Part shown: one piece after another, positions 259-36,567 of the stretch | Position numbering within the stretch: the stretch's first letter is position 1 | Layout: every line of letters starts with the position of its first letter | IMG/VR virus record: IMGVR_UViG_2681813232_000007 | Reading direction: 5' to 3' (one strand) | Source of the DNA: a virus | Lineage: Duplodnaviria > Heunggongvirae > Uroviricota > Caudoviricetes | DNA: 37,702 bases | Position numbers and translations under genes: made by a program | The notes under the pieces: model-generated | The model's input: the letters and a program-made list of their open reading frames with translations, nothing else | Databases searched by the model: none | What the model was told of the DNA's origin: nothing

Positions 259-268
259 TCGTCTGACA

Positions 269-2732: not shown

Positions 2733-2775
2733 CCCATCAACCCCGCCATTTCGGTTCAAGGTTGATGGGTTTTTT
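2733..2775 (+). terminator. intrinsic terminator-like hairpin (probably ybjL terminator, near prophage right junction)
   Basis: cccatcaacc (2733-2742) pairs with ggttgatggg (2760-2769), followed by TTTTTT (2770-2775). Confidence 0.45.
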
Positions 2776-2855
2776 GTTGCCTGAAATTTAAGCTGTTTAA
2801 AATCATGATGTTAGAAACACTGTTTTTTAACGATGGCGACAAAATGGCGGCAGCG

Positions 2856-3074: not shown

Positions 3075-3164
3075 TTTTCGAATTCTCCCCATTTTTGCTA
3101 AATTCACAATAATGATACCGCATTATTCCATTTTGCAAACTTAAAAGTTCTCCATTGCGAAGAA

Positions 3165-4265: not shown

Positions 4266-4747
4266 GACAGCAGCCCTCCCACCGTTTTACTGATATCGCT
4301 TAAGGCAGACGTTGCTGTGTCCTGCAGATTATTCAGTTGCGCACTGAGATCACCGAATATATCGGACAGGGATTCATCCACCCGTTTGAGCGACAGGGTG
4401 AACTCAATCCGGCGCGGCATACCGTCGCGGAAAAACTCCGTTTTAGTCTGATTCAGTCCCTCAATCACATACATGCCATAAATCGTGCCACTGCCTTCAA
4501 TCAGGGGCCATGCTTTCCCCTGTTCTGCCATCTGCTCCAGTGCCAGCAACGACAGCCTGCCACCTGTTATCTCCGGCATAAGAACACCGGAAAGCGTCAG
4601 CATGTCGTTGTCCGGTCCCAGAAACTGCGTGGACGGACATCGGTTTACCCGGCTGTTTGCCGCATGTCGCCAGCTGCGTTGATACTGCAGCTCCTGATAT
4701 GGCACGGTGCGCAGCATAAACACGTACAATCCCAGCACCATCATCAT
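4262..4747 (-). CDS. U: tail protein U
   Basis: 161 aa, size and position match P2 gpU; 4-nt overlap with D and T. Confidence 0.85.
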   Translation of the reverse strand: MMMVLGLYVFMLRTVPYQELQYQRSWRHAANSRVNRCPSTQFLGPDNDMLTLSGVLMPEITGGRLSLLALEQMAEQGKAWPLIEGSGTIYGMYVIEGLNQTKTEFFRDGMPRRIEFTLSLKRVDESLSDIFGDLSAQLNNLQDTATSALSDISKTVGGLLS

Positions 4748-10144: not shown

Positions 10145-10711
10145 TCAGGGGGATTCATTGCTCTTATTTGCCGGAAATTTTCTATAAATGGTAGAAACGC
10201 CTACATCAAAAATCAGTGCAATACGCTGTCTTGATTCTCCGGCCTCGAGTAAACGCCCAATCTGTGCCCACTGTTCGGTGGTCAACTTAGGACGGCGTCC
10301 ACCTACTCTGCCTTTGGCACGAGCTGCAGCCAGCCCTGCCATGGTATGTTCAACTATCAGTTCGCGTTCCATTTCAGCCAGGGCCCCCATGACATGAAAA
10401 AAGAAACGGCCCATTGGGGTGCTGGTATCAATACTGTCAGTCAGGCTTCGGAAATTCACGCCACGCTGACGCAACTCTTCTATCAGCGTAACAAGATGCC
10501 GCATACTGCGCCCCAACCTGTCCAGCTTCCAGACAACCAGAGTGTCTCCTGCCGATAGTGTCCTGAGCAGCTTTTTCAGCCCCGGTCTGTCGGACTTGGT
10601 GCCACTGATTTTATCCTCAAAAATCCGCTCACATCCCGCACAGTTCAGTGCATTGCGTTGCAAATCGGTGTTCTGGTCATTTGTTGACACGCGTACATAG
10701 CCAATAAGCAT
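10145..10711 (-). CDS. serine recombinase, DNA invertase (Gin/Pin/Cin/Hin family)
   Basis: MLIGYVRVSTNDQNTDLQRNAL... with catalytic Ser in the YVRVSTxDQ motif and C-terminal HTH (GVSTIYRKF); near-identical by recall to Mu Gin over the N-terminus; ORF-track N-terminal extension to 11026 rejected. Confidence 0.9.
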   Translation of the reverse strand: MLIGYVRVSTNDQNTDLQRNALNCAGCERIFEDKISGTKSDRPGLKKLLRTLSAGDTLVVWKLDRLGRSMRHLVTLIEELRQRGVNFRSLTDSIDTSTPMGRFFFHVMGALAEMERELIVEHTMAGLAAARAKGRVGGRRPKLTTEQWAQIGRLLEAGESRQRIALIFDVGVSTIYRKFPANKSNESP

Positions 10712-10738
10712 GATCATCCCCCTGAATAAAAACCGGAG

Positions 10739-11215
10739 ATGATGCCAGTTAGCCGTTATCTCTGCATTTTCATAAACGTTCAATTGGGAGAAGCGGCAAA
10801 ACGGGATGTCGGAACCGGTAATAATCAACTCCCGGACATGTCCGCATTTGGTATGTCGCGAAACGGACAAACTGCCTGGGATATTCTCCCAAATGGTATG
10901 ATTCGACAGGCTGGCACTGTGACACTGACACCAGTTGGTAACTTCAACGCGCAGGTGCTTGGTGGGGTGACGTACTACACCCATTACTACAGGGTTAATT
11001 TCCCCAGACAATTCCCAAATGCACAAATAGCAACGCTGGCAACACTAGCGAGTTACAGCTATTCGACCCAGGCAACAATGGCCGGAAAATCACTGGCAAC
11101 GCATCGCGATACTGATTCTGGCACTGACGTATCAAGAACGCGATTCACTGTGGCGTATACGACACCCAATCTCGGCGAAACACCGACACTGCATTTTGAA
11201 GCAATAGGATACTAA
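10739..11215 (+). CDS. alternative tail-fibre C-terminal variable segment (Sv'-like, promoterless until inversion)
   Basis: opposite orientation to H, homologous to the H variable-region start, ends in ...EAIGY like H ends ...IALGY; the 5' end of this ORF upstream of the crossover is probably not translated in this orientation. Confidence 0.6.
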   Translation: MMPVSRYLCIFINVQLGEAAKRDVGTGNNQLPDMSAFGMSRNGQTAWDILPNGMIRQAGTVTLTPVGNFNAQVLGGVTYYTHYYRVNFPRQFPNAQIATLATLASYSYSTQATMAGKSLATHRDTDSGTDVSRTRFTVAYTTPNLGETPTLHFEAIGY

Positions 11216-14865: not shown

Positions 14866-15211
14866 TCTCTGCTCCTGTTGATACGGAAAGGGACACAGGC
14901 ACACCGTTATTCCGCCGCCCGGTCAGCTCCACCACCATTGAACCGTCAAAATTGCTGTTAATAGTGATGGAATCCAGCGTCAGCCGTGGCTCCCAGCGAC
15001 TCAGTGCCACATACACAGCCGACATGACCTGCAGGCGTAACGCCGGATTTTGTGGCTGGTCTATCAGTGCCGACAGCAGGGAACCATATTCCCGACGGGC
15101 AATGCGGCTACCCTGCGGCGTCAGCAAAATGTCCCGCACCGACTGGCGCAGATGGTCAATATCAGTAATGGCTTTACCGCTGGTATTGTTCATCCCGCTA
15201 TAAAGCGTCAT
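14852..15211 (-). CDS. W: baseplate wedge protein W
   Basis: 119 aa, size and position match P2 gpW. Confidence 0.85.
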   Translation of the reverse strand: MTLYSGMNNTSGKAITDIDHLRQSVRDILLTPQGSRIARREYGSLLSALIDQPQNPALRLQVMSAVYVALSRWEPRLTLDSITINSNFDGSMVVELTGRRNNGVPVSLSVSTGAENGSD

Positions 15212-15786
15212 ACCGGGCCTCCGGTTGTGTCGCCGCCTTTCAGGACGCCAGTATGCTGATGTGCATCAACCACAATTCCGTTAGAACTCATTGCACCGCC
15301 GCCCTGGGTAACACCACCATTGATCACTACTTCGCTGTTAATGCGTGTGCGGTCAGCCTCCAGTACAAACTCACTGGTTTTCAGGGTGATGTTGTCGGCA
15401 GCTTCAATGACCATGGATTTGATTCCCCTGACATACCAGCGCCCGGTAGCGGGTTCGTATTCAAACCAGCCACCGTCAGGATGTTCTGTCACACAGGCGT
15501 CCACCGACGCCGACGGTGGTGCGAACTGATTCGAATATACAGCGGGCAGCGCAAAGGCGGTTTCCAGATTGCCGCCCAGACTCAGCAGCACCACCTGCTC
15601 ACCTTCCGATGGTCGCCACCATGTGCGGGCATTACCCGCGCGCAGCGTCAGCCAGTTAATCCAGTTGGTTTCAAGGTCGCCCGTTTTCACCCGACAAAGC
15701 CAGTGTTCCCGGTCCACTTCGGTGACTACACCAGTGCGGATCAGGTTGGTGATAAGGCGCATGATTTCGGTTAATTGTGCGTTCAT
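15208..15786 (-). CDS. V: baseplate spike/hub protein V
   Basis: 192 aa, N-terminus and overall sequence resemble P2 gpV by recall. Confidence 0.85.
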   Translation of the reverse strand: MNAQLTEIMRLITNLIRTGVVTEVDREHWLCRVKTGDLETNWINWLTLRAGNARTWWRPSEGEQVVLLSLGGNLETAFALPAVYSNQFAPPSASVDACVTEHPDGGWFEYEPATGRWYVRGIKSMVIEAADNITLKTSEFVLEADRTRINSEVVINGGVTQGGGAMSSNGIVVDAHQHTGVLKGGDTTGGPV

Positions 15787-15886: not shown

Positions 15887-17146
15887 ATGTTTAGATTATC
15901 TAGTGTCAAGATTGAAGGTTTTTGGGGAAGACTAAATGCATCATGTTCATTTAATGAAGATGTAAATATTATTATTGGTCGAAATGGGACCGGTAAAACA
16001 ACCTTTATGAATATTCTTCACTCAGTTCTGGCATTAGAACTCGAATCACTAAATGAGAATAGTTTTGATAATGTAACAATAAAAATAAAAGAAGGAAGCA
16101 AAACTAAAACAATAAAAGTTGTGAGTAAATTTGACATAACTAAAGCTTTGCCTACGTTTGAATATACAATTTCTAGAAAGAAATATATTATCAGATCCTT
16201 TGAAGATCGTAGACTACCTATATATATGAGGAGAAAATATCAGGAAGACGTTGAAAAACTTAAGTTAGAGTTAGATAAATTAGTTGCTTTATCTTCTCTA
16301 TCAGTTTACCGACTTAGAAGCGGTGAAGATTTTGAAATCAGAGACAAATATGGCTCAAAATTAATCAACCCTGTTGATTACCGATTAGAACAATTATTGC
16401 AGAACCTAACAAAATATCAACTTTATTTATCACAAAGAGCTCGTGATGTTTCTGCAATATTACAGAAAGAGGTTCTTGCTTCTATTCTTTATAGTAAAGA
16501 AGATGGTATCGATGACACATTTAACTTTTCTTTTGATAAAGAAAAAGAACGTAGAAATTTAATAGCTGCATATTCTCAGCTTGGAGCTTTTGATAGTGAT
16601 GTCAGAAAGAAGATTAACTTTCACGTTGAATCTATTGCCAAAACATTTGAAGAATTACGACTTGCAGAAAAAAATAACAGAAATATTTTAAATGTAGATT
16701 ACAGATCATTTGAGGCATTACGAAAGACGCAAAGAATTATAAAGATGTCTTTAAAATCCGAGGAGAAAATAAAAAACATATTTCTTCCTATAAATCTATT
16801 TTTAGAAACATTACATGAGTTCATAACCGATAAAAAATTTAATTTTATCTCCGGTGAGCTAGTAATAGAAAACGAGCATGGGCCGATTAGCCATAGTAAT
16901 TTATCGTCTGGTGAAAAACAGCTATTAATTCTTTTTATTGAAACTTTGCTACAGCAAAACAAACCTTTCATCTATCTTACTGATGAACCAGAATTATCGC
17001 TACATATTGCATGGCAACGAAAAATAATACCTGCAATCAAACAACTTAATCCTAATGCGCAAATTATCGCCGCTACGCATTCACCAGAAGTGGCTTCTAA
17101 ATATCGAAATGCAATCTTTGATATGGAGAAATTGGTTCATGGATGA
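15887..17146 (+). CDS. ABC-type ATPase, candidate anti-phage protein (AriA/AbiLi-like)
   Basis: 419 aa; Walker A GRNGTGKTT (residues 31-39), signature-like LSSGEKQ, Walker B-like FIYLTDEPELSLH; AAGGA Shine-Dalgarno upstream; strongly AT-rich compared with flanking phage genes. Confidence 0.7.
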   Translation: MFRLSSVKIEGFWGRLNASCSFNEDVNIIIGRNGTGKTTFMNILHSVLALELESLNENSFDNVTIKIKEGSKTKTIKVVSKFDITKALPTFEYTISRKKYIIRSFEDRRLPIYMRRKYQEDVEKLKLELDKLVALSSLSVYRLRSGEDFEIRDKYGSKLINPVDYRLEQLLQNLTKYQLYLSQRARDVSAILQKEVLASILYSKEDGIDDTFNFSFDKEKERRNLIAAYSQLGAFDSDVRKKINFHVESIAKTFEELRLAEKNNRNILNVDYRSFEALRKTQRIIKMSLKSEEKIKNIFLPINLFLETLHEFITDKKFNFISGELVIENEHGPISHSNLSSGEKQLLILFIETLLQQNKPFIYLTDEPELSLHIAWQRKIIPAIKQLNPNAQIIAATHSPEVASKYRNAIFDMEKLVHG

Positions 17147-17990
17147 TTTCCATTATTCTGCCGAAGCAGAAAATGTAATGAATTTATTTTACCAAGCTGA
17201 AGCCATGGTTTATGTTGAAGGCCCAGATGATATTTGCTTTTGGGAAATCATCTTTAATAAAGCTAGTTCATTAAAGGTTGAAATCAAAGATGTTGGCGGC
17301 TGTGAAGAATTAAAAAAATATATTGATAGAGTTACTGATGAAGATCTTCAAATTATAATTGCATGTGATGCAGACTTCACTACATTTGAAAATGAGGAAA
17401 ACGCTGATAGTCGCATTGTAAAAACTTATGGGCACTCCATCGAAAACACGTTTATTGACAAAACAGGCATATATAAGGCAATAAAAACTCTAGGAAAATT
17501 ACCTCAAAAGATAATGAACGATGTCAACGTCGATTCTTGGACAGAAGACTTTTATACCAAAATGGAACCCCTAATAAAACTTGATATATACAATCATATT
17601 TATAGAAAAGGCATTTCAGTTATTGGTGACAGTGCAGATCGTTTCATGAAATCTAGAAAATCAAATGAAATTTGCGAGCAAAAAATCACGAGTTACAAAA
17701 ACACCATCATTGAAAAATTAGGTGTGGAACCAGATAACATCGATTCATCTTTCAAATCAAAATCGATAGAATACAGAAAGTGGCTTAGAGGTCATTTTCT
17801 TTTTTCTGCAGTACATAGGTACATTAGCACAACTGCAGAAAAAAATGGAAAAAAAGTATCCTTATCATATGAATCATTATATTCCAATTTAATGAATACA
17901 TTTGAATCCAATTTTACCAATACTCATATTGAGTTTAATCATTACCACGAAAAAATTAAAGCCATAAATATGCCACACGAAATGAAATAA
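17139..17990 (+). CDS. DUF4435/TOPRIM-like putative nuclease, candidate anti-phage effector (AriB/AbiLii-like)
   Basis: start set at MDDFHY (ATG at 17139) overlapping the upstream stop as ATGGATGA; conserved acidic motifs YVEGPDD and IIACDADF consistent with a TOPRIM Glu plus DxD; AT-rich. Confidence 0.65.
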   Translation: MDDFHYSAEAENVMNLFYQAEAMVYVEGPDDICFWEIIFNKASSLKVEIKDVGGCEELKKYIDRVTDEDLQIIIACDADFTTFENEENADSRIVKTYGHSIENTFIDKTGIYKAIKTLGKLPQKIMNDVNVDSWTEDFYTKMEPLIKLDIYNHIYRKGISVIGDSADRFMKSRKSNEICEQKITSYKNTIIEKLGVEPDNIDSSFKSKSIEYRKWLRGHFLFSAVHRYISTTAEKNGKKVSLSYESLYSNLMNTFESNFTNTHIEFNHYHEKIKAINMPHEMK

Positions 17991-18015: not shown

Positions 18016-18462
18016 TTATGTAGATAACCATTCAAATAGGGTATCCTTGATTTGATAATATTCTTTATCGTGGATACCCAATAGCTTACGCTCTGCGTAA
18101 CGGACCTCAGGTCCTTTGCGACTGACGCGATCACGCAGGCCGTAGTGATGAACGCGGGCAATGCGCTGCACCTTGCCTTCAAACTGCACGCTGGCAGAAT
18201 CGGCGCTGGCGGCAGTTTTCAGGTATTTTGTGGTGCGCAGCTTCGCAAACATCTGACGTTTAATGCGGCCTTTTTTACTGCGTGCTGTTACCCGTCGCGG
18301 TTCATAGCTGCTGCCGTCAGGGTTGCGCTGCATCCTGATATTCTGCTGCTGTGTCCGGCGAAGTTCCTGCGCCAGTTGGCGCATCATACGGCTTCTTGCG
18401 GCTGGCTCCAGATTCGCCAGCAAGGCACTCAGCCAGTCGTCCACCTTCTGCAATTCAGCCAC
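18016..18462 (-). CDS. S: tail completion protein S
   Basis: 148 aa, resembles P2 gpS by recall (DSWLSALLANLEPAAR..., FAKLRT.YLK, VQFEGKVQRIARVH.YGLRDRV.RKGP). Confidence 0.85.
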   Translation of the reverse strand: MAELQKVDDWLSALLANLEPAARSRMMRQLAQELRRTQQQNIRMQRNPDGSSYEPRRVTARSKKGRIKRQMFAKLRTTKYLKTAASADSASVQFEGKVQRIARVHHYGLRDRVSRKGPEVRYAERKLLGIHDKEYYQIKDTLFEWLST

Positions 18463-21914: not shown

Positions 21915-22970
21915 TTATGCTCCGGCTTCTGCGGCGGTGCTGAAGTCGCCAATCTGGATGTTTTCCACCAGTGCTGCGCAGCGGTAGTCCTCAACCACAT
22001 AGGCTTCGTTAACGGATTCAAAGTTTTCAATCCGGTCACGTTTCGGGTTGTCGATAACTGAACGGCGGCGGGTGTCTTCCTGCCAGTAGATGGACAGGTT
22101 ATCCAGACGGGTGATCAGCAGCGCATTCGGCGGGAAGAACGGCGCACGCACGGCCTGCAGGCCACCCATGCGTTTCTGGCTGATGATCATATCGGCAGCC
22201 AGTTTTTCACTGTTTTCCTGCTCTTTGTTGACCAGCGGGAAATACTTATCAGACAACAGTTCACGACCGCAAATCACCACCAGATCGTCATCGTCCTGGT
22301 AGACCACGTCGATAAGCTCATTAACGGCATCCATCACCACGGCGTCCAGGTTGGCATATTCGCCACCTTTACCGACTTTCACCGCGCCCGGTGTGGTTTC
22401 ACCGCCCGTGGTGGTGCTGCCCATGACGTGATCCGGTGCATCCTCACGGATTTTCTGCAGCCAGCCTTTATTCACATCCTGCAGCAGCGGGTTTTCGCTA
22501 CGGTTGGAGGTTTTCGCACGCTTCACGCCGTTAAAGCCGATCATGATGCGGTCCAGTGCCTGACGTTTCACGATGGCGTCACGGATACGCACCTGAAAAT
22601 CCTGAAACTTCGCCCACAGGTCCAGCTTCGCGTAGGTCAGCACCGTGTCAAAGTTGGTCTGCTCGCATTTATATTCCACATCGACCATCAGCGTCGGATC
22701 GACAGGTTCACGCTCTTTCGCGGTGGTATCAGTGGTTCCGGCAATGGTGCTGCCAACTCCCAACCCCAGCAGCTGACCGGACTGCTCAGTCACTGGCGTG
22801 ACGTTAATCAGCGTCAGGAAAGCGGCGGACTGCTGGATCTGGTCTTCCAATGTCTGCTGCACGGACGGCTCTACGGTGAACTTGCTGGACAGTTCTTCAA
22901 CTGCCACACCGTTCAGACGCGCCAGTTGCTGCAGGTAAGCGTTAAAAGCAAAGCGGGTATTCTTCTTCAT
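21915..22970 (-). CDS. N: major capsid protein N
   Basis: 351 aa, extensive resemblance to P2 gpN by recall (FNAYL, KFTVEPSV.QTL, DLVVI.GR.LL.DKYFP.VNKEQ.NSE.LAAD.IISQKR). Confidence 0.92.
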   Translation of the reverse strand: MKKNTRFAFNAYLQQLARLNGVAVEELSSKFTVEPSVQQTLEDQIQQSAAFLTLINVTPVTEQSGQLLGLGVGSTIAGTTDTTAKEREPVDPTLMVDVEYKCEQTNFDTVLTYAKLDLWAKFQDFQVRIRDAIVKRQALDRIMIGFNGVKRAKTSNRSENPLLQDVNKGWLQKIREDAPDHVMGSTTTGGETTPGAVKVGKGGEYANLDAVVMDAVNELIDVVYQDDDDLVVICGRELLSDKYFPLVNKEQENSEKLAADMIISQKRMGGLQAVRAPFFPPNALLITRLDNLSIYWQEDTRRRSVIDNPKRDRIENFESVNEAYVVEDYRCAALVENIQIGDFSTAAEAGA

Positions 22971-22986: not shown

Positions 22987-23820
22987 TCAGCAATTGGTCA
23001 GAGTGTCAGCGGGGGCGTTACCGCCTGTTGCACGCTGGCGGTAGTCCTGGCGGCTGTCTTCTTGGCTCAGCTTGTCCACCAGTTCGTTAAAGGCGGTCTG
23101 CTGTGCCTGCAGGGCTGTCTCCAGCTCAGACAGGCGCTCTTCCTGCTCAGACAGGGATTTTTCGGTGCGCGCACTCAGGTTCTGCTGCTCAGTGGCGACC
23201 AGTTCCACGGCCTTATGCACATCAGAGAACCGGGCGTCATCGGACTGCTCTTTTTTGGTGAACAGCGCCGTGACACGGGCAAACAGGGACGGCTTGTCCT
23301 CCTGGATTTCTTCCAGTTCGATCACCGTTTCCTCTGCGGCTGTAAAGAGATTGGCGGGATTCTGCTTGCGGTTTGCCAGCGGGTTATGGGCTGCACTGGC
23401 GCTGAATGTCAGCATTTCAGTGCCCAGACTGGCAGGGTCATCAGTGGCTGCCAGGCCGACCAGGTAGGCTTTGCCCGTATCAGCAAACTTCGGGCTGACT
23501 TCCATAGAGGTGAATAATTTCTGGCCTTTTTTCACCAGTTCCACCAGGGACTCCGTTGGCTCAACGTCGGCATACAGCGCCATCTTGCCTGCCAGCGGAC
23601 CTTCCGTGATTTCTTCAGCAAACAGCGCCGTCACCTTACCGTAGCGGTTAAAGGTGCTGTCCGGCAGATAAGACTTGATGTGCTCAAGGTTAATCAGCGC
23701 GGTATACACCGCCGGGTTGTAGCTGGCTGCCATCTGTTCCAGCCATTCACGCTGGATTTCGCGTCCGTCGGTGGTGGCACCTTCCACCCCGATGCGAAAA
23801 CGCTTTGCTTTCACTGTCAT
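22987..23820 (-). CDS. O: capsid scaffolding protein O
   Basis: 277 aa, N-terminus FRIGVEG.T.DGR...INLEH like P2 gpO by recall. Confidence 0.9.
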   Translation of the reverse strand: MTVKAKRFRIGVEGATTDGREIQREWLEQMAASYNPAVYTALINLEHIKSYLPDSTFNRYGKVTALFAEEITEGPLAGKMALYADVEPTESLVELVKKGQKLFTSMEVSPKFADTGKAYLVGLAATDDPASLGTEMLTFSASAAHNPLANRKQNPANLFTAAEETVIELEEIQEDKPSLFARVTALFTKKEQSDDARFSDVHKAVELVATEQQNLSARTEKSLSEQEERLSELETALQAQQTAFNELVDKLSQEDSRQDYRQRATGGNAPADTLTNC

Positions 23821-23962: not shown

Positions 23963-25729
23963 ATGAACACCACACTGACACCCGCAGATCTCGATCCCCG
24001 TCGGCAGGCCATGCTGCTGTACTTTCAGGGATACCGCGTAGCCCGCATTGCTGAAATGCTGGGCGAGAAAGTTGCAACCGTTCACAGCTGGAAAAAACGC
24101 GACAAGTGGGGTGACTATGGGCCGCTGGATCAGATGCAGCTCACCACCGCCGCACGCTACTGCCAGCTCATCATGAAGGAGCACAAAGAAGGGAAAGATT
24201 TCAAAGAGATTGACCTGCTGGCGCGCCAGTCGGAGCGCCACGCGCGGATCGGCAAGTTTAACAATGGCGGCAACGAAGCTGACTTAAACCCTAACGTCGC
24301 CAACCGCAACAAAGGCCCACGCCGTCAGCCTGAAAAGAATGTTTTCACCGATGAACAGATTGAGAAGCTGGAAGAAATTTTCCATTCCTCCATGTTCAAC
24401 TACCAGCGCCACTGGTGGGAAGCCGGAAAAACCAACCGCATCCGCAACCTGCTGAAGTCACGCCAGATCGGCGCGACCTTCTATTTTGCCCGTGAAGCCC
24501 TGATTGACGCCCTGCTTACCGGACGTAACCAGATTTTCCTTTCTGCCAGTAAGGCACAGGCCCACGTCTTTAAGCAGTACATCATCGACTTCGCCAAAGA
24601 AGTGGAGGTGGAGCTGAAAGGCGATCCGATGGTGCTTCCCAACGGGGCCACGCTTTACTTCCTCGGCACCAATGCCCGCACGGCCCAGAGTTACCACGGC
24701 AACCTGTATCTGGATGAATATTTCTGGATACCGAAATTCCAGGAGCTGCGCAAAGTGGCTTCCGGTATGGCTATTCACAAAAAATGGCGACAAACCTATT
24801 TTTCCACGCCATCCAGCCTGACACACAGTGCTTATCCGTTCTGGTCCGGTGCGCTGTTCAACCGTGGGCGCAACAAAGCCGATAAGGTGGACATCGACCT
24901 GTCCCACAGCAATCTGGCCCCCGGCCTGCTGTGCGCAGACGGGCAATACCGCCAGATAGTCACCGTGGAAGATGCGGTGCGCGGCGGCTGTAACCTGTTC
25001 GACCTTGACCAGTTGCGCATGGAGTACAGCCCGGACGAATACCAGAACCTGCTGATGTGCGAGTTTGTGGACGATCTCGCGTCCGTGTTCCCGCTCAGCG
25101 AGCTGCAGGCGTGCATGGTAGACAGCTGGGAAGTCTGGACTGACTTTCATGCACTGGCCCTGCGCCCGTTTGGCTGGCGCGAAGTATGGATCGGTTATGA
25201 CCCGGCGAAAGGTACGCAGAATGGCGACAGCGCCGGATGCGTGGTGGTGGCACCGCCAGCCGTGCCGGGCGGCAAGTTCCGCATTCTTGAGCGTCACCAG
25301 TGGCGCGGAATGGACTTTCGCGCCCAGGCTGACGCCATCAAAAAACTGACCGAACAGTACAACGTGACCTACATCGGCATCGACTCGACAGGTGTCGGCC
25401 ACGGGGTTTACGAGAACGTGAAAGCGTTTTTTCCAGCCGTCCGGGAGTTTGTCTACAACCCCAACGTTAAAAACGCCCTGGTACTCAAGGCCTACGACAT
25501 TATCAGTCACCGTCGTCTGGAGTTTGACGCCGGACACACCGACATAGCGCAGTCATTTATGGCAATCCGTCGCGCCACCACCGCCAGCGGCAACCGCCCA
25601 ACCTATGAAGCCAGCCGCAGCGAAGAAGCCAGCCATGCCGATCTGGCCTGGGCAACAATGCACGCACTGTTTAACGAACCGCTGCAGGGCGAATCCGCCA
25701 ATACCAGCAATATTGTGGAGATTTTTTGA
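23963..25729 (+). CDS. P: terminase large (ATPase) subunit P
   Basis: 588 aa, size and divergent position relative to O match P2 gpP. Confidence 0.9.
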   Translation: MNTTLTPADLDPRRQAMLLYFQGYRVARIAEMLGEKVATVHSWKKRDKWGDYGPLDQMQLTTAARYCQLIMKEHKEGKDFKEIDLLARQSERHARIGKFNNGGNEADLNPNVANRNKGPRRQPEKNVFTDEQIEKLEEIFHSSMFNYQRHWWEAGKTNRIRNLLKSRQIGATFYFAREALIDALLTGRNQIFLSASKAQAHVFKQYIIDFAKEVEVELKGDPMVLPNGATLYFLGTNARTAQSYHGNLYLDEYFWIPKFQELRKVASGMAIHKKWRQTYFSTPSSLTHSAYPFWSGALFNRGRNKADKVDIDLSHSNLAPGLLCADGQYRQIVTVEDAVRGGCNLFDLDQLRMEYSPDEYQNLLMCEFVDDLASVFPLSELQACMVDSWEVWTDFHALALRPFGWREVWIGYDPAKGTQNGDSAGCVVVAPPAVPGGKFRILERHQWRGMDFRAQADAIKKLTEQYNVTYIGIDSTGVGHGVYENVKAFFPAVREFVYNPNVKNALVLKAYDIISHRRLEFDAGHTDIAQSFMAIRRATTASGNRPTYEASRSEEASHADLAWATMHALFNEPLQGESANTSNIVEIF

Positions 25730-26763
25730 TGGGAAAGAGTAAGAAGAACCGCGCTGCGGCGACGAAACAGATCCAGCTTAAAAGTCAAACTACAGCCGAA
25801 GCATTCAGCTTCGGCGATCCCGTTCCTGTTCTGGACCGCCGAGAACTGCTGGATTATGTGGAATGCGTACAGATGGACCGTTGGTATGAGCCGCCCGTCA
25901 GCTTTGACGGACTGGCGCGCACCTTCCGCGCTGCCGTGCATCACAGTTCCCCGATTGCAGTAAAGTGCAACATTCTGACCAGTACCTATATCCCTCACCC
26001 GCTGCTCAGCCAGCAGGCTTTTTCACGTTTTGTGCAGGACTACCTGGTATTTGGTAACGCCTACCTGGAGAAACGCACGAACCGCTTCGGTGAAGTTATC
26101 GCCCTTGAGCCTGCCCTGGCAAAATATACCCGACGCGGGTTAGACCTGGATACCTACTGGTTTGTGCAATACGGTATGACAACCCAGCCATATCAGTTCA
26201 CGAAAGGCAGCATTTTTCATCTGATGGAACCAGATATTAATCAGGAGATCTACGGCCTGCCCGGCTATCTTTCTGCCATCCCATCCGCTTTGCTCAACGA
26301 GTCCGCCACGCTGTTCCGCCGCAAATATTACATTAACGGTAGTCATGCAGGCTTCATCATGTACATGACCGATGCCGCGCAGAACCAGGAGGATGTGAAC
26401 AACCTCCGCAATGCGATGAAAAGCGCCAAAGGGCCGGGCAACTTCCGCAACTTGTTTATGTACTCACCCAACGGAAAGAAAGACGGGATTCAGATCATCC
26501 CGCTGTCAGAGGTGGCGGCAAAAGATGAGTTTCTTAACATCAAGAACGTGAGCCGGGATGACATGATGGCAGCGCACCGTGTACCGCCGCAGATGATGGG
26601 GATTATGCCTAGTAATGTTGGCGGGTTTGGGGATGTTGAAAAGGCTAGTAAGGTTTTTGTCAGGAATGAGTTAATTCCGCTACAACACAGAATATCTGAA
26701 ATTAACTCATGGATTGGACTTAATGAAGAACTGGTTAAATTTACCTCATATGAATTAGATTAG
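25726..26763 (+). CDS. Q: portal protein Q
   Basis: 345 aa, size and position match P2 gpQ; overlaps P stop by 4 nt; the last ~40 codons are conspicuously AT-rich. Confidence 0.9.
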   Translation: MMGKSKKNRAAATKQIQLKSQTTAEAFSFGDPVPVLDRRELLDYVECVQMDRWYEPPVSFDGLARTFRAAVHHSSPIAVKCNILTSTYIPHPLLSQQAFSRFVQDYLVFGNAYLEKRTNRFGEVIALEPALAKYTRRGLDLDTYWFVQYGMTTQPYQFTKGSIFHLMEPDINQEIYGLPGYLSAIPSALLNESATLFRRKYYINGSHAGFIMYMTDAAQNQEDVNNLRNAMKSAKGPGNFRNLFMYSPNGKKDGIQIIPLSEVAAKDEFLNIKNVSRDDMMAAHRVPPQMMGIMPSNVGGFGDVEKASKVFVRNELIPLQHRISEINSWIGLNEELVKFTSYELD

Positions 26764-26814
26764 GCATATAGAAATGCACCTAACATCGAAAGTGAGATTA
26801 GGTGCAAATAATAA

Positions 26815-27969
26815 TCAGCTTATTTGACCTAATAATTCTTCCGCATATTTTTTATCACTATCCATCCGTTGCTGAACAGCATCCCTAAGATGCTCTTTCA
26901 ACTTATCAGGATAATTTTTACATGCATCAATCAATTTTGTTCGTAAAAGCTTAGCACCATTTACAATGGTGGCATAAGCTAAAGCATCAGCTAACTCCTT
27001 AACTTTCACATCATCAGTAATGATAGAAGGGATTGAAAAAACGTAATATTTCGCAACATAATTTTGCGTATACCAACTATCATATAACAATCCAATTAAA
27101 GCATCACCAAGATCACCTCTTCTTTTAAATTTGCTACCAAATGTATTACCCCATGTTCCTATAGCTCCTTTGGTCGCATCAGAATAGAAATCCAAATATC
27201 CTTTTTTGCACTCTTCGATGATTATATTTTCCATTCTAATTAAAACATCATCAGGAAGATTTCTCCATGCGCTCGGCTTAATTATTCTAAATACATTAGC
27301 AAACTCAACATTATTGCTAGCCTTGCGTAACTCATCACCTAGCAACCGCATTGCGGCTTTTTCTTCCTCTCCTGAAAAGCGTTGGTTTATTGCTTTGAAT
27401 ATAGAATCAATTTCCTTGGTTGGCCTTTCATTAAAGCGAGAAATTAAACTTTGGAAAAAATCTAGTAGTTTTTTTTCTGGAATTTGTGATATTAAAGCTT
27501 CTGCATAATCAGAATTATTTACAAAGTGAACCTCATAAATTCTTTCAAGAATTGCTGTGTAATCGAACTCAGCAACATCTCTTTTTAAATACTTAATAAA
27601 AGTATCCAACATGATCAATATTCTCATGCAGGAATCTTCTGTATCAGGGAAATTGTCATGTGTCCTTGGATTTCTTATACACTGATAGTAGCCTCTTAAT
27701 AGTGCTTCAAATCCGCGCTGTTCGTCCTGCTCTGATACAGATTGAAGACTATTAATTTGGATTCTAGGTGATTGTCCACCCAAAACAGTACCAACAAGCT
27801 GAGCCCCATCCCCTTCACATTGCCCTTTTTCACGCAGCAAAGTTGTTAGATATTTGGTTCCTGCAAGTATTGCATCCGAAAATTGGTTGTTTTCCAGCCT
27901 ATTACCAATCGCTTCAACTAATTCCGCATCGAAATTATTTGTATTAAAGTTATTTTTTACAAACATCAC
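26815..27969 (-). CDS. orphan cargo protein with N-terminal HEPN-like RNxxxH motif, candidate abortive-infection RNase
   Basis: 384 aa, AT-rich; motif IRNPRTH (R99-H104; codons 27658-27675); GGGGAG Shine-Dalgarno upstream of the ATG; sits between the portal gene and the cos-like site. Confidence 0.6.
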   Translation of the reverse strand: MMFVKNNFNTNNFDAELVEAIGNRLENNQFSDAILAGTKYLTTLLREKGQCEGDGAQLVGTVLGGQSPRIQINSLQSVSEQDEQRGFEALLRGYYQCIRNPRTHDNFPDTEDSCMRILIMLDTFIKYLKRDVAEFDYTAILERIYEVHFVNNSDYAEALISQIPEKKLLDFFQSLISRFNERPTKEIDSIFKAINQRFSGEEEKAAMRLLGDELRKASNNVEFANVFRIIKPSAWRNLPDDVLIRMENIIIEECKKGYLDFYSDATKGAIGTWGNTFGSKFKRRGDLGDALIGLLYDSWYTQNYVAKYYVFSIPSIITDDVKVKELADALAYATIVNGAKLLRTKLIDACKNYPDKLKEHLRDAVQQRMDSDKKYAEELLGQIS

Positions 27970-28052
27970 ACTCCCCTTTTTTTGAAAGGGTATTGTATTG
28001 AACCTTGTTAAGATTTCTCAGATAAGTATCACACTATCTCAAGTTGCGCGCG

Positions 28053-28071
28053 CTCGTATCCCCGCCACGCC
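28053..28071 (-). other. cos-like cohesive-end site (186/P2 type)
   Basis: minus strand reads GGCGTGGCGGGGATACGAG; the first 13 nt match the remembered 186 cohesive end GGCGTGGCGGGGA; located between Q and the tum-like operon as expected. Confidence 0.45.
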
Positions 28072-28116
28072 TGCCCGCTTTATGTAGTGGTTTTCATGCA
28101 CCTGCATGATCTACGC

Positions 28117-28142
28117 AAAAGCCCGCCAGTTCTGGCGGGCCT
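28117..28142 (-). terminator. intrinsic terminator of the tum/dinI-like operon
   Basis: perfect hairpin gcccgccag-ttc-tggcgggc (28121-28140) followed on the minus strand by TTTTG. Confidence 0.7.
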
Positions 28143-28275
28143 TAGCAAAAACGATCCTCAAACGATCATGCGATCTCATGCGGCATAGACATGCACTACA
28201 GAGCTAACGCCTCGCAAGGGCTCGTTGTTCAACCTTGCTGACGCCAGAAGCAAGTTCAGACGCCAGCAACGTTTC

Positions 28276-28509
28276 TTAATGCAGCCAGCTGTCGTCTTCC
28301 CACACCTTCTGCATAATTTTCATCACTTGTTTTCTTTCTTCGTCCAGTTGCAGTCCGGTTAGTTCCACACCGTTAGAGCTACCTTTGCGAATGCGAATTA
28401 CCGTTTTGGGATACAGGGGGCGCAGATTGCGGTAAAGCTCGGATTCAAGGGCGTCCAGGGTAGACTGGCTAATCTTCTGCTCTTTATCGATCATTATTTC
28501 AATGCGCAT
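28276..28509 (-). CDS. DinI-family protein (C-terminal module of a split Tum-like antirepressor)
   Basis: start set at MRIEIMIDKEQ (ATG at 28509, GAGGTG upstream); 77 aa, alignable by eye to E. coli DinI (MRIEV...WESADDW versus MRIEIM...WEDDSW). Confidence 0.8.
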   Translation of the reverse strand: MRIEIMIDKEQKISQSTLDALESELYRNLRPLYPKTVIRIRKGSSNGVELTGLQLDEERKQVMKIMQKVWEDDSWLH

Positions 28510-28519
28510 AAAAGTCACC

Positions 28520-28708
28520 TCAGCTGATGACATCCATTGAGCGGTTGTATTCGTGGGTTCTGATTTTTGCCATGAGTTCATCAGTCAATTCAGAAACCCA
28601 CTGCAGAGCCAGCCCCTTCTCTTCATCACTACACTCACTAGCCGCTACAAGCTTAAGAAAAAAATCAATGCGCTGGAGCTTCAAAGACTCCAAAAAATAG
28701 TCCTGCAT
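28520..28708 (-). CDS. small protein co-transcribed with the dinI-like gene (possible N-terminal module of a Tum-like antirepressor)
   Basis: start set at MQDYFLES (ATG at 28708, AGGAGG upstream); 62 aa; lies directly downstream of the LexA box. Confidence 0.55.
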   Translation of the reverse strand: MQDYFLESLKLQRIDFFLKLVAASECSDEEKGLALQWVSELTDELMAKIRTHEYNRSMDVIS

Positions 28709-28751
28709 CTTTCCTCCTATGACACCACACGCAATACTGTACGCATAACCA

Positions 28752-28767
28752 CTGTTTATATTTACAG
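28752..28767 (-). promoter_or_regulatory. LexA operator (SOS box) overlapping the promoter of the tum/dinI-like operon
   Basis: CTGT-N8-ACAG: cACTGTTTATATTTACAGta matches the TACTGTATATATATACAGTA consensus at 17/20; minus-strand -35 TTTACA (28788-28793) and -10 TATACT (28766-28771) with 16-nt spacer. Confidence 0.8.
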
Positions 28768-28861
28768 TATATAATAATCTTACTGATGTAAAACGTTTTT
28801 TTACGTTCATCAGCCTGATATGCCTGGTATTATAAAGAGCACGAATTGTTAACCCGCGTAA

Positions 28862-31273
28862 TTAATACAGGTTCCGCCACTGATCATCTTCTTGCAAACG
28901 CTGGTTCCGATAGAAGATACGCAGGCCTGCTCCTGACGGAATACTGCCTCCGCGAAGGAGTAAATCGACCTCTTTCTCGCTGCCATCAAATCCTCTGGAC
29001 TTCAGCTCATACACGAGCTGCAGTCGCTGATGGTCTGTAATTCGCTGTTTGTAGTCTTTACGCCGTTTCGGTTTCACCAGGCGTAACCTTGCAGCCAGTT
29101 CCCGGCGCTCTTTTTTGTTCATACTGTGCAGGTAATCGTGCAACTCCTTGTCATCCATGCTGGTAATGTCCGTTCTGGGGTCCCCATCAGCTGATTTATC
29201 TTTCTCCTGTTGGTTCAAATTTTCAGCAAGGGGACAGTTATTGCCACGAGTCCAAGGGGCGCAAGCGCCCTGGGCTGCCGCCTCCTGAACGTCAACGGCT
29301 TTACGAACCATTTTCCACTTCACTGCATGAGTGCAGATCTTGCCCTCTGCAATGGGTGACCAGATGCCATAAATACGAATGCCGTGATCGCCATAGGCGG
29401 TCGGCTCTTCGTTGATTTCATAAGCGGTTCTGATGAGGTGATATTTACGGGGAACCAGTACGCCGCCCTGCTTCATGATGTAGGTGGCAAAACAACCAGC
29501 ATCAGCAGCAGCCAGAATGGCATCAAGACGCGGGTTATCCAGTACCGGCGCACCTGCTTTTTTGTCACCCTGTTGCCTTGCCGCCTGACCAGCCAGCAAG
29601 CGAAGTTCACGGTAAGCCTGACGCCCCGGAATACCAAAGAAGCGGAATTGCTGAACACGATGCAGAGACGCCCAGGCATTCACGTATTCAGCGTTATCAC
29701 GCAGAGATTTACCCGTTTCCTTGCTGATCTCGCCAGCCAGACCACGACCGTCAATGTTCTTACTGATATATTTCGCGATGTAGCTTGTCGGCGTTCCTTT
29801 GCGCGGGTTAATCAACTCAGACTTAAAGCGCGGCCCAGTGTTATTGCCCAGCTCCTCGCGGTCTTCACGGATGGCAAACTTACGCAGTAATGCAGTGATG
29901 GCACGGCGGTCTTTTTTGCGCATGAAACACAACAGGTGCCAGTGAACTGTGCCATCATGATGCGGCTCAGCCACCCGCACGCCATACCAGCGCAACCCGG
30001 CTTTGTGCATCGCCTTACGAAATGCAGCAAACATGCCGACCAGATAATCGCTGCTTTGTCTTACCGTCGCGTTTGTCCAGGTCGGGTTTGGTCTGCCGTT
30101 ATTTAGCGTGGAATGGAAACGCGACGGACAGGTGATAGTGTAGAAAACGGCGCAGTCACCGCGCATTTCCGCGATAAGCTCCAGACCTTTAACACAGGCC
30201 ATCATCTCATTGCGGCGATGCGCAGGGTTGCTGCTGCTGGCGTTTACCACATCCTCCATGTCCAGCGTGTCGCCGTCTTCGTTCACCAGTTCATGAGAAC
30301 GGAAAAACTCCAGCGACTTACGGCGCTGCTCACGTTTATGCATCACGGCTTCATAGCTGACATAAGGAGATGCTTTTTTGCTGACCAGGCAAACAGCGCG
30401 CAACTGCTCTTCCCGCCATTCGCAACGCATCTTCCATAATTTCCGATACCACCAGTCGGCGCACAACATACGCGCCAGCGAACCCGGAATGAGTTCATAG
30501 GGCACGGGTTTACGGCGGTTTCTTTTCCGACGGAGTTGCTCAAACGCAGGTGGGATGACATCCAGACGCAGGGTTTCCGCTGCCACCTTTTCCCATGTCT
30601 TGCGGATTTCTTCTGGCTTAACGTCATCGGTGGCATACAAATCACCACAAGCTGCATCAAGGCACATACTCATATGCGCAGCTACCAGGGTGGACAGGCG
30701 TTTCACCTGATCCTGACTCATTTCAGGCAGGATCAGCAGGCCGTCCAGCCCTTCATGGCTTGCCATAAAGCGAAAAGATGCAGATAGCTGACTGTCGCGT
30801 ACATGCTCCAGTCGTTCCAGACATGGCTTAATCGTCTCACGTAAATAGCGGGAATAAGCCTTTGGCCTGCCCAGGCTGCTGAAGTATTCAATACGTTGCA
30901 TCAGCGGCTTGCTGATATTGGAAGGCTGGGCGTTGACGTCCGCCAGAATGACCATGTCTGAATTAAAACGCTGCTGCTCATGCGCCAGCTTTGCCCGGCT
31001 AATGAGCTTATCCTGCTCCATTTCGCGCTGGACAGGATCACGTGATTCATTAAAGAAATAACGCTCCCAGACCTGATCACTCAGTGCCTCGCGGCGCAAC
31101 TGTTCCTGCTCGTTATCGGCAGCGTACAGAGTGATCAGGTTTGAAAGCGTAGAAACCGGCGCAACTTCCGCCGGGTCCAGATAAGGGTTAATGGCCTTTT
31201 TCGGGCTGTTCCATGAGAATGCTGCGGCAGCCTCGTTAAAGCCGCAGCACTTGTTCATATCGGCATGACTCAT
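28862..31273 (-). CDS. A: replication initiation protein A (rolling-circle nicking endonuclease)
   Basis: 803 aa, size and position match P2/186 gpA; tandem His motif WHLLCF; start overlaps dam stop. Confidence 0.88.
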
Positions 31274-34273: not shown

Positions 34274-34870
34274 ATGTCAACATCAAAGTACCCAAGTGAG
34301 ATCAAAATAAATCCCAATAAAGGTGGTAAGGCTGCGATTGAGCGATTAGTCGAAGCCTATGGCTTTACGACACGACAGGCTTTAGCTGATCACTTGGAAG
34401 TATCAAAAAGCACACTAGCGAACAGGTATTTGCGGGATACATTTCCTGCTGACTGGATAATCCAATGTGCTCTTGAAACAGGAACCTCCCTCAAATGGTT
34501 AACTACCGGACAAGGCCTTAAGCAAAGCTCGCTGACAGCAGCTACAGAAGAGCTTGTTAAGTTTCGCCTTGCCGCAGGCAAAATGATTGAAGACGGTTCA
34601 TATGTCTTCGATTCATCATTTCTTCCTGCAAACCTTTCATCACCAATTGTTGTTCAGGATGGACTCGTCACATACATTTGTGATCAAAAATTTTCTGAAG
34701 TACTTGATGGAAACTGGTTAATCAATATCGACGGAACCTATTCCATTCGAAAAATCACAAGGCTTCCTAAAGGAATGATTAAAATTACAACAGCAGAGAA
34801 TAGCTTTGAATGTGCATTTTCTGATATTGAAGTGGTTGCTTGTATAAGAAGTACAATAGTCTCGAATTAA
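34274..34870 (+). CDS. cI: CI immunity repressor (186 CI type)
   Basis: 198 aa; N-terminal HTH and motifs EAYGF, CALETG..L.WL.TG.G shared with 186 CI by recall. Confidence 0.8.
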   Translation: MSTSKYPSEIKINPNKGGKAAIERLVEAYGFTTRQALADHLEVSKSTLANRYLRDTFPADWIIQCALETGTSLKWLTTGQGLKQSSLTAATEELVKFRLAAGKMIEDGSYVFDSSFLPANLSSPIVVQDGLVTYICDQKFSEVLDGNWLINIDGTYSIRKITRLPKGMIKITTAENSFECAFSDIEVVACIRSTIVSN

Positions 34871-34890: not shown

Positions 34891-36567
34891 ATGAATTCAT
34901 TTGCCATCGTTATACTCTTATTAGCATTTCTCGCCCCTGTTCTAGCTGTAATATTATTTAAACAAAGTAAAAAACACAAAGCGGCTATAGATAACCTGAC
35001 AGCTAACAACATAGCCCTTTCTAACCAACTGATTGAAAATCAAGAAAAACTAGCACAGACCGTACGAGAATTATCAGAGCTTGAAGGGCGAGCAGCACCA
35101 TTGTGGCAATACGAAGAATTGCACAGCGCAGTAATGGATGCAGAGAATAAGATAAAAAATGCGGACTCAATAGCCAAGCAAAAAATAGATGAAGCCCAAA
35201 TTAAGGCGGCTAAAACAGTAAACGAAGCAAATTATCAAGCTCAGATGACAATAAGCAACGCTAATAGCGAAGCTATAGCAATCACCAAAGACGCTCGCGA
35301 TGCACGCCTGAAAGCCAAAGAACGTCTTGATAATGCTAATAATAAAGCAAATGAGCTAATCTCAAATGCTAATGACAATGCAGTAAAAATTATTTCTGAT
35401 GCAGAAGAAAGAGCAAAGGAGATTGCTGGTTCAGCATATGAAGCTAAAGAGTTTGCAGAAAAATATGAAGCAGTTGCAAAATCAATGAAAAATAAAATTG
35501 AAGGTTATGGTGATGAATGGATCATCCCTAACCGTAGTGTACTTGATGAGCTGGCAGAAAATTATGAATTTACAGATGCAGGCAAGGAATTACAAAAAGC
35601 CAGAGAGTTAACCAAATCATTAATAAAAACTAATAAAGCTGCTTCGTGTGATTATGTTGAGCAAAACAGGCGTAATACTGCCATAAACTTTGTTTTGGAT
35701 GCCTTCAATGGAAGAGTTGACAGTATTTTATCAAAAGTCAAACACAACAATTTTGGAAAACTTTCCCAAGAAATAAAAGATGCATTTCAACTAGTAAATT
35801 ACAATGGCTCTGCCTTTAGGTCCGCAAAAATAAGTGACATCTATCTTCAGGCAAGACTCAACGAGCTAAAATGGGGTGTAGCAGTTAATGAAATTATGCT
35901 CGAAGAAAAAGAAGAGCAAAGAAGGATTAAAGAACAGCTTCGTGAAGAGGAAAGAGCTCGTAGAGAATATGAAAAAGCGATAAAAGAAGCTGAAAAAGAA
36001 GAAAAAGCTATTCAGCAAGCTATAAATAAAGCAACGAAAGAACTTATGCTTGCAAATGAAGAACAACGCTTAGCTTTAGAGCAAAAAATAGCTGAACTAC
36101 AGTTAAAATATGAAGAAGCTGAAGCTAAAAATCAACGAGCTATTTCTATGGCTCAACAAACCAGATCAGGCCACGTCTATATCATTAGTAATATTGGTTC
36201 ATTTGGCGAAGATGTATATAAAATTGGAATGACACGCCGCCTTGAACCACTTGATCGTGTTCGTGAACTCGGAGATGCTAGTGTTCCTTTTTCGTTCGAT
36301 GTTCATGCGATGATTTATAGTGATGATGCACCATCATTAGAAAACCATCTGCATAAAGTTTTCAACGAAAAGCAGGTCAATAAAATTAACTCACGAAAAG
36401 AGTTTTTTAACGTAAATTTAAAAGAAATCAAATCAGTTATTGAAGACATGAACATCAACGCCCACTGGACAATGTTTGCAGAGGCGAAAGAATATAGAGA
36501 GTCTCTATCTATTGAGCAGGAGCGCAAAGCAGCCACTTCCGCCAACGATGAACTACATGTTGCTTAG
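34891..36567 (+). CDS. membrane-anchored coiled-coil protein with C-terminal GIY-YIG-like (T5orf172-type) domain; candidate anti-phage cargo
   Basis: 558 aa, AT-rich; N-terminal transmembrane helix (FAIVILLLAFLAPVLAVILF), long Lys/Glu/Ala-rich helical region, C-terminal GHVYIISN...YKIGMTRRLEPLDRVREL; inserted between cI and int. Confidence 0.65.
   Translation: MNSFAIVILLLAFLAPVLAVILFKQSKKHKAAIDNLTANNIALSNQLIENQEKLAQTVRELSELEGRAAPLWQYEELHSAVMDAENKIKNADSIAKQKIDEAQIKAAKTVNEANYQAQMTISNANSEAIAITKDARDARLKAKERLDNANNKANELISNANDNAVKIISDAEERAKEIAGSAYEAKEFAEKYEAVAKSMKNKIEGYGDEWIIPNRSVLDELAENYEFTDAGKELQKARELTKSLIKTNKAASCDYVEQNRRNTAINFVLDAFNGRVDSILSKVKHNNFGKLSQEIKDAFQLVNYNGSAFRSAKISDIYLQARLNELKWGVAVNEIMLEEKEEQRRIKEQLREEERARREYEKAIKEAEKEEKAIQQAINKATKELMLANEEQRLALEQKIAELQLKYEEAEAKNQRAISMAQQTRSGHVYIISNIGSFGEDVYKIGMTRRLEPLDRVRELGDASVPFSFDVHAMIYSDDAPSLENHLHKVFNEKQVNKINSRKEFFNVNLKEIKSVIEDMNINAHWTMFAEAKEYRESLSIEQERKAATSANDELHVA

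Follow-up and report, generated by a model that had tools for sequence, protein, structure and literature searches.

The interval between gpA and gpQ of P2-like phages, which lies close to the cohesive-end site cos and includes the old/tin locus, has already been described as a hotspot (Rousset et al. 2022, PMC9122126; NAR 2026, PMC13586616). For this hotspot, Rousset et al. 2022 (PMC9122126) proposed an event at the cos end together with one homologous exchange, a model that they declared untested, and in a later analysis at the level of whole genes, defence genes proved to be almost unlinked to core genes (Spearman <=0.2; NAR 2026, PMC13586616). The interval is a major reservoir of anti-phage systems, and the speed with which its content is swapped is an acknowledged open question. 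Here we examine one such locus in the IMG/VR virus record IMGVR_UViG_2681813232_000007, a stretch of 37,702 nucleotides (nt) that is called the window throughout, and in particular the portal gene Q, whose 3' end is AT-rich, and the HEPN-like gene beside it, which we call the cargo gene. Comparison with related phages indicates that the end of Q is probably AT-rich because it is exchanged between phages together with the cargo, through a crossover at variable places in Q and a fixed end at cos. The footprints of exchange can be followed at nucleotide resolution, as a graded flank in Q and a sharp, universal junction at cos.

The window is a P2-like (Peduoviridae) prophage, and the region around Q is its late-gene and cos region. 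The order of N, O, P and Q, followed by the cargo gene, cos, a DinI-family gene and A, is syntenic with P2 and 186, with gpQ on one side and gpA on the other of a P2-like backbone. At the amino acid (aa) level the Q protein is 63% identical to P2 gpQ and 96% identical to the portal of phage Cartapus, and positions 25726-28300 are 100% identical to Escherichia phage vB_EcoM-813R9, a deposited phage record in which GpQ and GpA are annotated. The locus resembles the described P2 hotspot in its backbone, the interval occupied, the adjacency to cos, the defence-type cargo and an extreme diversity of content (here 49 cargo types in 76 loci). In P2 and 186, unlike the window, Q is followed by a terminator and then by cos, and the P2 cargo (old, tin) lies beyond cos; the cargo of the window lies between Q and cos, which puts it at the very left of the packaged DNA molecule. 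The features on which the argument turns are as follows.

25729-26763, plus strand: portal gene Q, 344 aa from the ATG at 25729 (the open reading frame list starts it at the TTG at 25726); Pfam Phage_portal
26608-26763, plus strand: AT-rich 3' end of Q, with a GC content at third codon positions (GC3) of 0.27 against 0.65 upstream, delimited by change point, Fisher test and clade-wide GC3 profile
26660-26763, plus strand: cargo-linked hypervariable terminus of Q (its last 104 nt), which behaves as a piece of the cassette
26416-28045, no strand: block that stays nearly identical (1-3 mismatches) where the flanks diverge, from mismatch maps against Kp4865-2, MG48 and the contigs L019 and L020
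26815-27966, minus strand: cargo gene, convergent to Q
28046-28198, no strand: conserved cos island; 28046 is the joining point for every one of the 49 cargo types, and a second variable region follows from about 28199
28053-28071, minus strand: cos 19-mer, the putative equivalent of the cohesive end, matching the 186 cos at 15/19 and the P2 cos at 14/19 positions

Association of the Q terminus with cargo type

We collected 80 close relatives of Q from IMG/VR, of which 75 had an identifiable cos motif, giving 76 loci with the window included. Their Q proteins are 92-100% identical, and the space between Q and cos is occupied by 49 distinct cargo clusters. Over the last 104 nt of Q (26660-26763), identity was 0.959 in pairs of loci with the same cargo and 0.592 in pairs with different cargo, with a maximum of 0.837 for the latter, and the tails clustered by cargo across the 76 loci, with an adjusted Rand index (ARI) of 0.91 between tail clusters at a 95% threshold and cargo clusters. 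Immediately upstream, at 26600-26659, the corresponding identities were 0.945 and 0.831 with an ARI of 0.32-0.69, and in the body of the gene (25729-26400) they were 0.960 and 0.941 with an ARI of 0.00-0.28. Judged from these alignments, the cassette-specific part of Q is its last ~100 nt.

The divergence along Q is graded. Among representatives of the 49 cargo types, mean pairwise identity was 0.93-0.97 in most intervals up to about 26470 (with lows of 0.87-0.90 near the 5' end), 0.86-0.90 at about 26479-26628, 0.79 at 26629-26658, 0.72 at 26659-26688 and about 0.5 from 26689 to the stop codon. Tails belonging to different cargo types share about 50-60% of their nucleotides, and they are 44-88% identical in amino acid sequence to the consensus of loci that have no cargo. 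A single breakpoint at 26600, as first suggested, is ruled out, since the sequence of 26600-26659 is largely retained in phages whose cargo differs. The possibility raised with that suggestion, that the C-terminal part might be conserved at the nucleotide level in phages lacking this cargo, does not apply to the last ~100 nt, but it does describe 26600-26659, where 83% is held in common.

Composition and coding of the Q terminus

Sliding GC content was 0.50-0.57 over Q to 26599, 0.485 at 26500-26699 and 0.36 at 26600-26799, and values of 0.28-0.40 continued across the cargo gene as far as about 28000. The initial annotation had described a GC-rich gene that switches abruptly to AT-rich sequence at ~26600, continuous with the neighbouring gene, and the GC plot bears out both the discontinuity (from ~0.53 to 0.36) and the continuity beyond it. 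GC3 was 0.65 in the body of Q and 0.31 in its last 55 codons, and the maximum-likelihood single change point fell at codon 293 (nt 26608), with values of 0.65 before and 0.27 after it (Fisher's exact test of body against tail, p=5.2e-6). The AT-rich end is therefore real, but nearer to 52-55 codons long than to the ~40 first given.

The tail is a portal C-terminus of the usual length, since Q has 345 codons including the stop, with its conserved residues and its reading frame kept. It aligns residue for residue with the gpQ proteins of P2 and 186, with 62.5% amino acid identity to P2 gpQ over 40 aa, and all tails retain the scaffold PLQxRxxExNxWxxxxxIxFxxYxL. The change at the end of Q consists of synonymous codon choice and amino acid divergence, and not of a new frame, a truncation or a fusion. 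Truncation or fusion of Q through insertion of the cargo was considered separately and is ruled out by the protein alignment.

The compositional pattern recurs throughout the clade. GC3 of the Q body was 0.60-0.68 in every locus (mean 0.647±0.016), while the clade means were 0.49 for codons -55 to -37 and 0.33 for the last 36 codons, next to a cargo GC of 0.366. AT-richness also increased with the divergence of the tail (rho 0.43, p=0.004). In 75 species-level loci that span Escherichia to Cupriavidus, GC3 over the last 36 codons could be predicted from the GC content of the 600 nt downstream of Q (rho 0.74, p=4e-14), but GC3 of the Q body could not. The GC3 drop was 0.02±0.08 in loci with no cargo (n=9) and 0.25±0.17 in loci with cargo (n=48; p=3e-4). 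The comparison with P2, 186 and related phages that had been proposed at the outset agreed with this, in that P2 and 186 (tail GC3 0.71 and 0.78) and nine other no-cargo loci lack the drop.

Three loci with no cargo between Q and cos, from Enterobacter bugandensis (L112), a Citrobacter sp. (L130) and Pantoea stewartii (L134), carry an identical portal C-terminus of normal GC content, ELNDWLGEEVIRFEPYTLGLTEDKRND. This may be the 'unswapped' consensus tail of the lineage.

Transfer of the cassette between backbones

One line of evidence for joint transfer comes from phages that carry the same cargo in a different backbone. In Klebsiella phage Kp4865-2, mismatches to the window are dense up to 26415, only one (26535) follows until 28041, and divergence resumes from 28077. 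The left junction has the same pattern in E. coli MG48, with 3 mismatches in 26416-28040, and in the IMG/VR contigs L019 and L020, which add one more single-nucleotide polymorphism (SNP) at 26758, while the Q bodies of Kp4865-2 and MG48 are 6-14% divergent from that of the window. These mismatch maps mark the block 26416-28045 as the unit that was moved in the most recent detectable exchange.

Other carriers place the left junction elsewhere. In E. coli VE-V11-M the last difference from the window within Q is at 26612, and identity is 100% in every 50-nt bin of 26650-27949, which covers most of the cargo gene. Because the three near-isogenic relatives with other cargo all differ from the window at 26622, its crossover is suggested to lie between 26612 and 26622. 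CFT073 and the locus L018 share a longer block with the window; their junction precedes the Q stop codon by about 909 nt. At least three different left junctions of the cassette can thus be distinguished, at about 25854, at 26415-26535 and just after 26612. The initial reading of a recombination inside the 3' end of Q that brought in a foreign terminus was accordingly sound in joining tail and cargo, but the single junction gives way to a graded zone with these several junctions.

The near-isogenic prophages with other cargo are 07-4299 (TIGR04255/XRE), FDAARGOS_1287 (DUF262) and S1-CAM-01-A (a 469-aa hypothetical protein). Their identity to the window is 96-98% as far as about 26430, falls to 84-92% in 26450-26650 and to about 55-70% between 26650 and the Q stop, with stepwise divergence at about 26433 and about 26650; their cargo cannot be aligned, and identity returns to 100% from 28050. 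A more distant phage, at the locus L022, carries a diverged orthologue of the cargo (93% aa identity) together with the same peculiar Q tail, including a 2-codon insertion ('GLNEEL') common only to it and to the cassette of the window. Between these two, 39/55 tail codons are identical, 12 carry synonymous and 4 non-synonymous changes, and in the Q body only 146/289 codons are identical. Since the tail of L022 is far closer than its body and its changes are mostly synonymous, the codon comparison indicates that the tail is functional and younger than the split of the two backbones.

At base 28041, immediately to the left of the conserved cos island, the window differs from all carriers whose right-side mismatches were listed (Kp4865-2 and L018-L021), and the SNP seems private to its lineage. 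Two loci are interrupted by an insertion sequence (IS). In a Logan contig (L186; ERR3164676, 3995-4975), where the prophage has the cargo of the window, an IS with a DDE transposase lies in the 3' end of Q at ~codon 330 and separates a 65-aa open reading frame of the Q tail from the rest of Q. In E. coli XJ23PTE1 (hit H75), the match is interrupted by IS100 somewhere within 24800-29300.

The junction at cos

The other end of the cassette behaves quite differently. The cos 19-mer stands in the same context as in P2 and 186 (GCGCGC...CCCCGCCxCGCC), and the homologous sequence is annotated as putative cos in Cartapus; by this correspondence the mature genome would have its left end at 28071 and read from there into the cargo and then Q. 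When the 49 cargo types are compared base by base, identity stays at ~0.28 as far as 16 nt short of the cos motif and lies at 0.84-0.96 from 13 nt short of it onward; in the window the variable DNA ends at 28045, and the right junction (28046) is 7 nt from the 19-mer. In same-cargo pairs the left junctions are spread over 7-909 nt upstream of the Q stop codon, and the first differences on the right fall mostly 13-29 nt from the start of the cos motif, even where the Q genes are identical. The initial annotation had expected hotspot exchange through flanking homology; the fixed end of the cassette at cos had escaped it.

The two sides of cos assort independently. Sequence immediately to the right of the 19-mer shows linkage to the right variable region (ARI 0.5-0.83) but none to the left cargo (ARI 0.00-0.04), nor is the left cargo linked to the right cargo (ARI 0.04). 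CFT073 has the same left cargo as the window and two extra genes in its right-hand variable region. By these values linkage breaks completely at cos, which separates two sub-hotspots; in the prophage the distance between them is ~150 bp, and in the virion they are the two genome ends.

Neither strand of the 37.7-kb window contains the Chi sequence (GCTGGTGG), an absence that is not significant, as ~1.3 occurrences are expected by chance. An explanation of crossover placement through RecBCD and Chi, which would need such sites, is without support here.

Origin of the AT-rich terminus

Based on these data, we propose that the exchangeable unit would consist of the last ~35 codons of Q, a hairpin, the TIGR02391/HEPN gene and its upstream region, ending 7 nt before the cos 19-mer. 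Two events would make up a swap of cassettes between related phages: a break or join whose position is fixed at cos, and a homologous crossover whose position within Q or P varies. If the crossover can fall anywhere in the conserved part of Q, the codons nearest the cargo would almost never part from it; they would carry the long, separate and AT-rich history of the cassette, and linkage, divergence and AT-richness would decay over the preceding ~250 nt. The AT-rich end of Q would then be the hitchhiking flank of a hypervariable locus that is kept diverse by selection, and the switch in GC3 at ~26608 would mark where cassette-associated ancestry begins to dominate in the clade. We hold this account to be likely. 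The comparisons show co-transfer of tail and cargo, variable left junctions, a fixed right junction and an association that is both clade-wide and cross-species.

That the break at cos is mediated by the cohesive ends or the terminase cut, and not by ordinary homologous recombination, is plausible but inferred, and we would give it roughly even chances. Both ends of the packaged genome carry cassettes that reassort freely, and a breaking and rejoining of genomes at cos, through the terminase cut or through annealed ends of co-resident phages, seems to us slightly less likely than the opposite as the cause. Should it be so, the cos 19-mer would be a site-specific recombination point that drives the turnover of defence genes, and an essential portal gene would tolerate the replacement of its last ~35 codons by very divergent versions at each swap. 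As to the source of the AT-rich DNA, we infer that the tails may have come from P2-like phages of hosts with lower GC content. Tail composition matches cargo composition, and low-GC P2-like portals do exist, for example in Proteus faecis (body GC3 0.39).

Several observations weigh against this account or narrow it. The plain GC content of 0.36 in the terminal 164 nt is not extreme, because other AT-rich islands in the rest of the late-gene region (3165-26599) make ~9% of windows of that size equally low; the significance of the pattern therefore rests on the GC3 contrast within the gene and on its replication across relatives. The segment 26600-26659 is AT-rich clade-wide and, with 83% in common across cargo types, only partly linked to cargo, so that part of the AT-richness predates the cassette or has spread independently of it. 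Since many of the surveyed loci are related, the counted pairs do not stand for independent events, and in a few pairs with the same cargo the tails differ (0.68-0.69 identity). Within the close clade, cargo GC and tail GC3 are weakly correlated (rho 0.27, p=0.06), for which reason the cross-species test was needed to see the link in composition. The break at cos could in principle arise through homologous recombination within the ~30-nt invariant core. No donor was found: when 50,697 phage records were searched by tblastn with the 40-aa tail, two cassette carriers matched at 100% and all others at or below 65%, the nearest of them at 62-65% in amino acid sequence, and homologues of the cargo at ~53% identity, from Vibrio and Aeromonas, are in non-P2 surroundings and not beside a portal gene (one is on a small contig and one in a lambdoid-type prophage). 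A homologue from Marinomonas could not be traced to its locus. A search of a 47-aa tail against 5.8 billion proteins returned only short portal fragments and no similar tail outside cassette carriers. These fragments were rejected as donors or relics, being Q genes split by an IS (as in L186) or by frameshifts in draft assemblies.

Local compositional drift offers a different explanation, in which the end of Q became AT-rich in place and without exchange with the cargo, through regional AT-biased mutation or selection such as H-NS-type silencing, through convergent transcription of the cargo or through relaxed codon selection. The sharing of 26600-26659 among phages with different cargo, the scaling of the GC3 drop with downstream composition across species, the greater AT-richness of the more divergent tails and a weaker drop at the end of gene S, which adjoins another AT-rich island of the window, are all in keeping with it. 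Drift does not account, however, for blocks of tail and cargo with 1-3 mismatches in backbones that are 6-14% divergent, for the clustering of tails by cargo or for the 2-codon insertion that accompanies a diverged cargo orthologue, and recently acquired cassettes, recognized by their identical blocks, have tails that are already fully AT-rich. Drift may help to keep cassette DNA AT-rich, yet it is no substitute for co-transfer, and as the explanation of the AT-rich end we regard it as unlikely.

It is known that portal proteins can set off some abortive-infection systems, and each cargo might need a matched portal C-terminus, for instance so that the portal of the resident phage would not activate that phage's own defence gene, with selection both maintaining the pair and diversifying the tails. 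Such coupling is attractive in that the tails are very diverse in protein sequence and almost perfectly associated with cargo type, but the divergence gradient and the variable crossovers are what neutral linkage predicts, and coupling is not needed for them. The changes between two versions of one cassette are mostly synonymous, the same-cargo pairs with different tails run counter to a strict match, the tails all keep a common scaffold, and no link of the HEPN protein to the portal was observed. We consider functional coupling very improbable. An artefact or gene damage, whether a chance fluctuation in composition or an insertion of the cargo that replaced the true end of Q by read-through to a fortuitous stop, can draw on the frequency of equally AT-rich 164-nt windows but is next to inconceivable given the GC3 contrast within the gene (p=5e-6), the repetition of the pattern in 49 cargo types and 48 species-level loci and the identical sequence in vB_EcoM-813R9; the alignment of a tail of normal length and with conserved residues to P2 and 186 gpQ already refutes it. 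Exchange of the Q terminus together with the cargo thus remains the explanation that we favour.

Cargo gene and other features of the window

The cargo protein belongs to TIGR02391/Hypoth_Ymh (Pfam PF09509, scoring 82.5 bits where the cut-off is 25, E 2.9e-23, residues 11-125) and contains an Rx4H motif, R98-N-P-R-T-H103 (RNPRTH). Its layout is that of an N-terminal HEPN-type domain, the ~115 aa matching PF09509, followed by an uncharacterised C-terminal region of ~250 aa. Among PADLOC models it matched PD-Lambda-3_B (2.4e-14) and Aga_HEPN (2.1e-9). The label 'HEPN-like' that the gene had been given initially is upheld by the Pfam score above threshold, the motif and the PADLOC HEPN models, and its likeness to HEPN and defence-associated models makes it a putative defence-type gene. 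The cargo gene is present in 51/5426 complete E. coli genomes; about 1290 E. coli genomes match the flanks of the locus, and 51 have this cargo. No relative of the protein was found in a collection of one genome per species.

Between the convergent genes a hairpin, likely a terminator, emerged from folding only; a scan of the junction for promoters and terminators gave nothing above the expectation from shuffled sequence. The remaining features of the locus and its flanks are listed here.

26775-26806, no strand: hairpin between the convergent Q and cargo genes, likely terminator and part of the cassette (-16.5/-16.6 kcal/mol, z=-3.8/-4.0 for the two strands)
27992-28021, minus strand: weak sigma-70-like site upstream of the cargo gene and within the cassette (9/12 of the consensus, no commoner than in shuffles), indicative only
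21915-22970, minus strand: capsid gene N
22987-23820, minus strand: scaffold gene O
23963-25729, plus strand: terminase gene P
28276-28509, minus strand: DinI-family gene, the first conserved gene beyond cos (Pfam DinI and annotation in relatives)
28862-31273, minus strand: replication gene A

Cargo occurs at other positions in the prophage as well. A second AT-rich cargo island at 15887-17990 (plus strand), between the tail genes V (15208-15786) and S (18016-18462), encodes an AriA-like AAA_21 ATPase (PADLOC E 6e-40) and an AriB-like DUF4435 protein (E 3e-24), which together make a PARIS-like pair. GC3 is 0.40 in the last 30 codons of S, beside this island, and 0.60 in the body of the gene, a weaker echo of the effect seen in the Q tail. 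At a third cargo position, between a CI-type repressor (34274-34870) and the integrase (36650 onward), a protein with DUF4041 and T5orf172 domains (34891-36567, plus strand) matches PD-Lambda-1 (E 3e-120). A serine recombinase or invertase (Resolvase and HTH_7; 10145-11026, minus strand) adjoins the tail-fibre genes, which suggests that these include an invertible segment.

Comparison with known systems

The hotspot is known, and a mosaic junction of this kind is what one would expect there. Set against what is known of that hotspot, hitchhiking on a scale below the gene and the linkage break at cos would be a modest refinement, and both fit the model of a cos-end event plus one crossover. We found no description of the linkage of the Q terminus, the graded boundary in Q, the single-nucleotide boundary at cos or the independence of the two sides of cos in the literature covered, which did not extend to the older work on P2. 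For the mining of defence genes, these results argue for setting the boundaries of the hotspot inside Q and at cos and not at gene borders, and they make the portal C-terminus a poor phylogenetic marker but a good tag of cassette type. The cos-plus-one-crossover model can now be put to a direct test, in crosses and through linkage mapped site by site.

Whereas the published whole-gene analysis of the hotspot found almost no linkage, the last ~100 nt of Q are here almost completely linked to the cargo, and the two sides of cos form independently assorting sub-hotspots, unlike in the published description. The cargo itself resembles component B of PD-Lambda-3 and Argonaute-associated HEPN proteins in its N-terminal match to PF09509 and its Rx4H motif. 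It is, unlike the two-gene PD-Lambda-3, a single gene with an additional C-terminal region.

Core genes are known to hitchhike beside hypervariable loci, as gnd does next to the O-antigen rfb locus of E. coli and pbp next to the pneumococcal capsule locus. The end of Q is similar to these in that divergence and foreign composition decay with distance from the diverse locus, in its co-transfer with that locus and in its variable crossovers. It differs in that the flank comprises only ~100-350 nt of an essential structural gene of a phage, and in that the gradient is one-sided, with the other boundary fixed at cos.

In phage lambda, double-strand ends at cos act as recombination hotspots. Our locus shares with this cos-focused recombination a sharp break of linkage at the cohesive-end site and a second, homologous exchange elsewhere. 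It differs in that P2 packages from monomeric circles and the window contains no Chi, and the cos-focused exchange proposed here is read from patterns of sequence variation in populations of phages.

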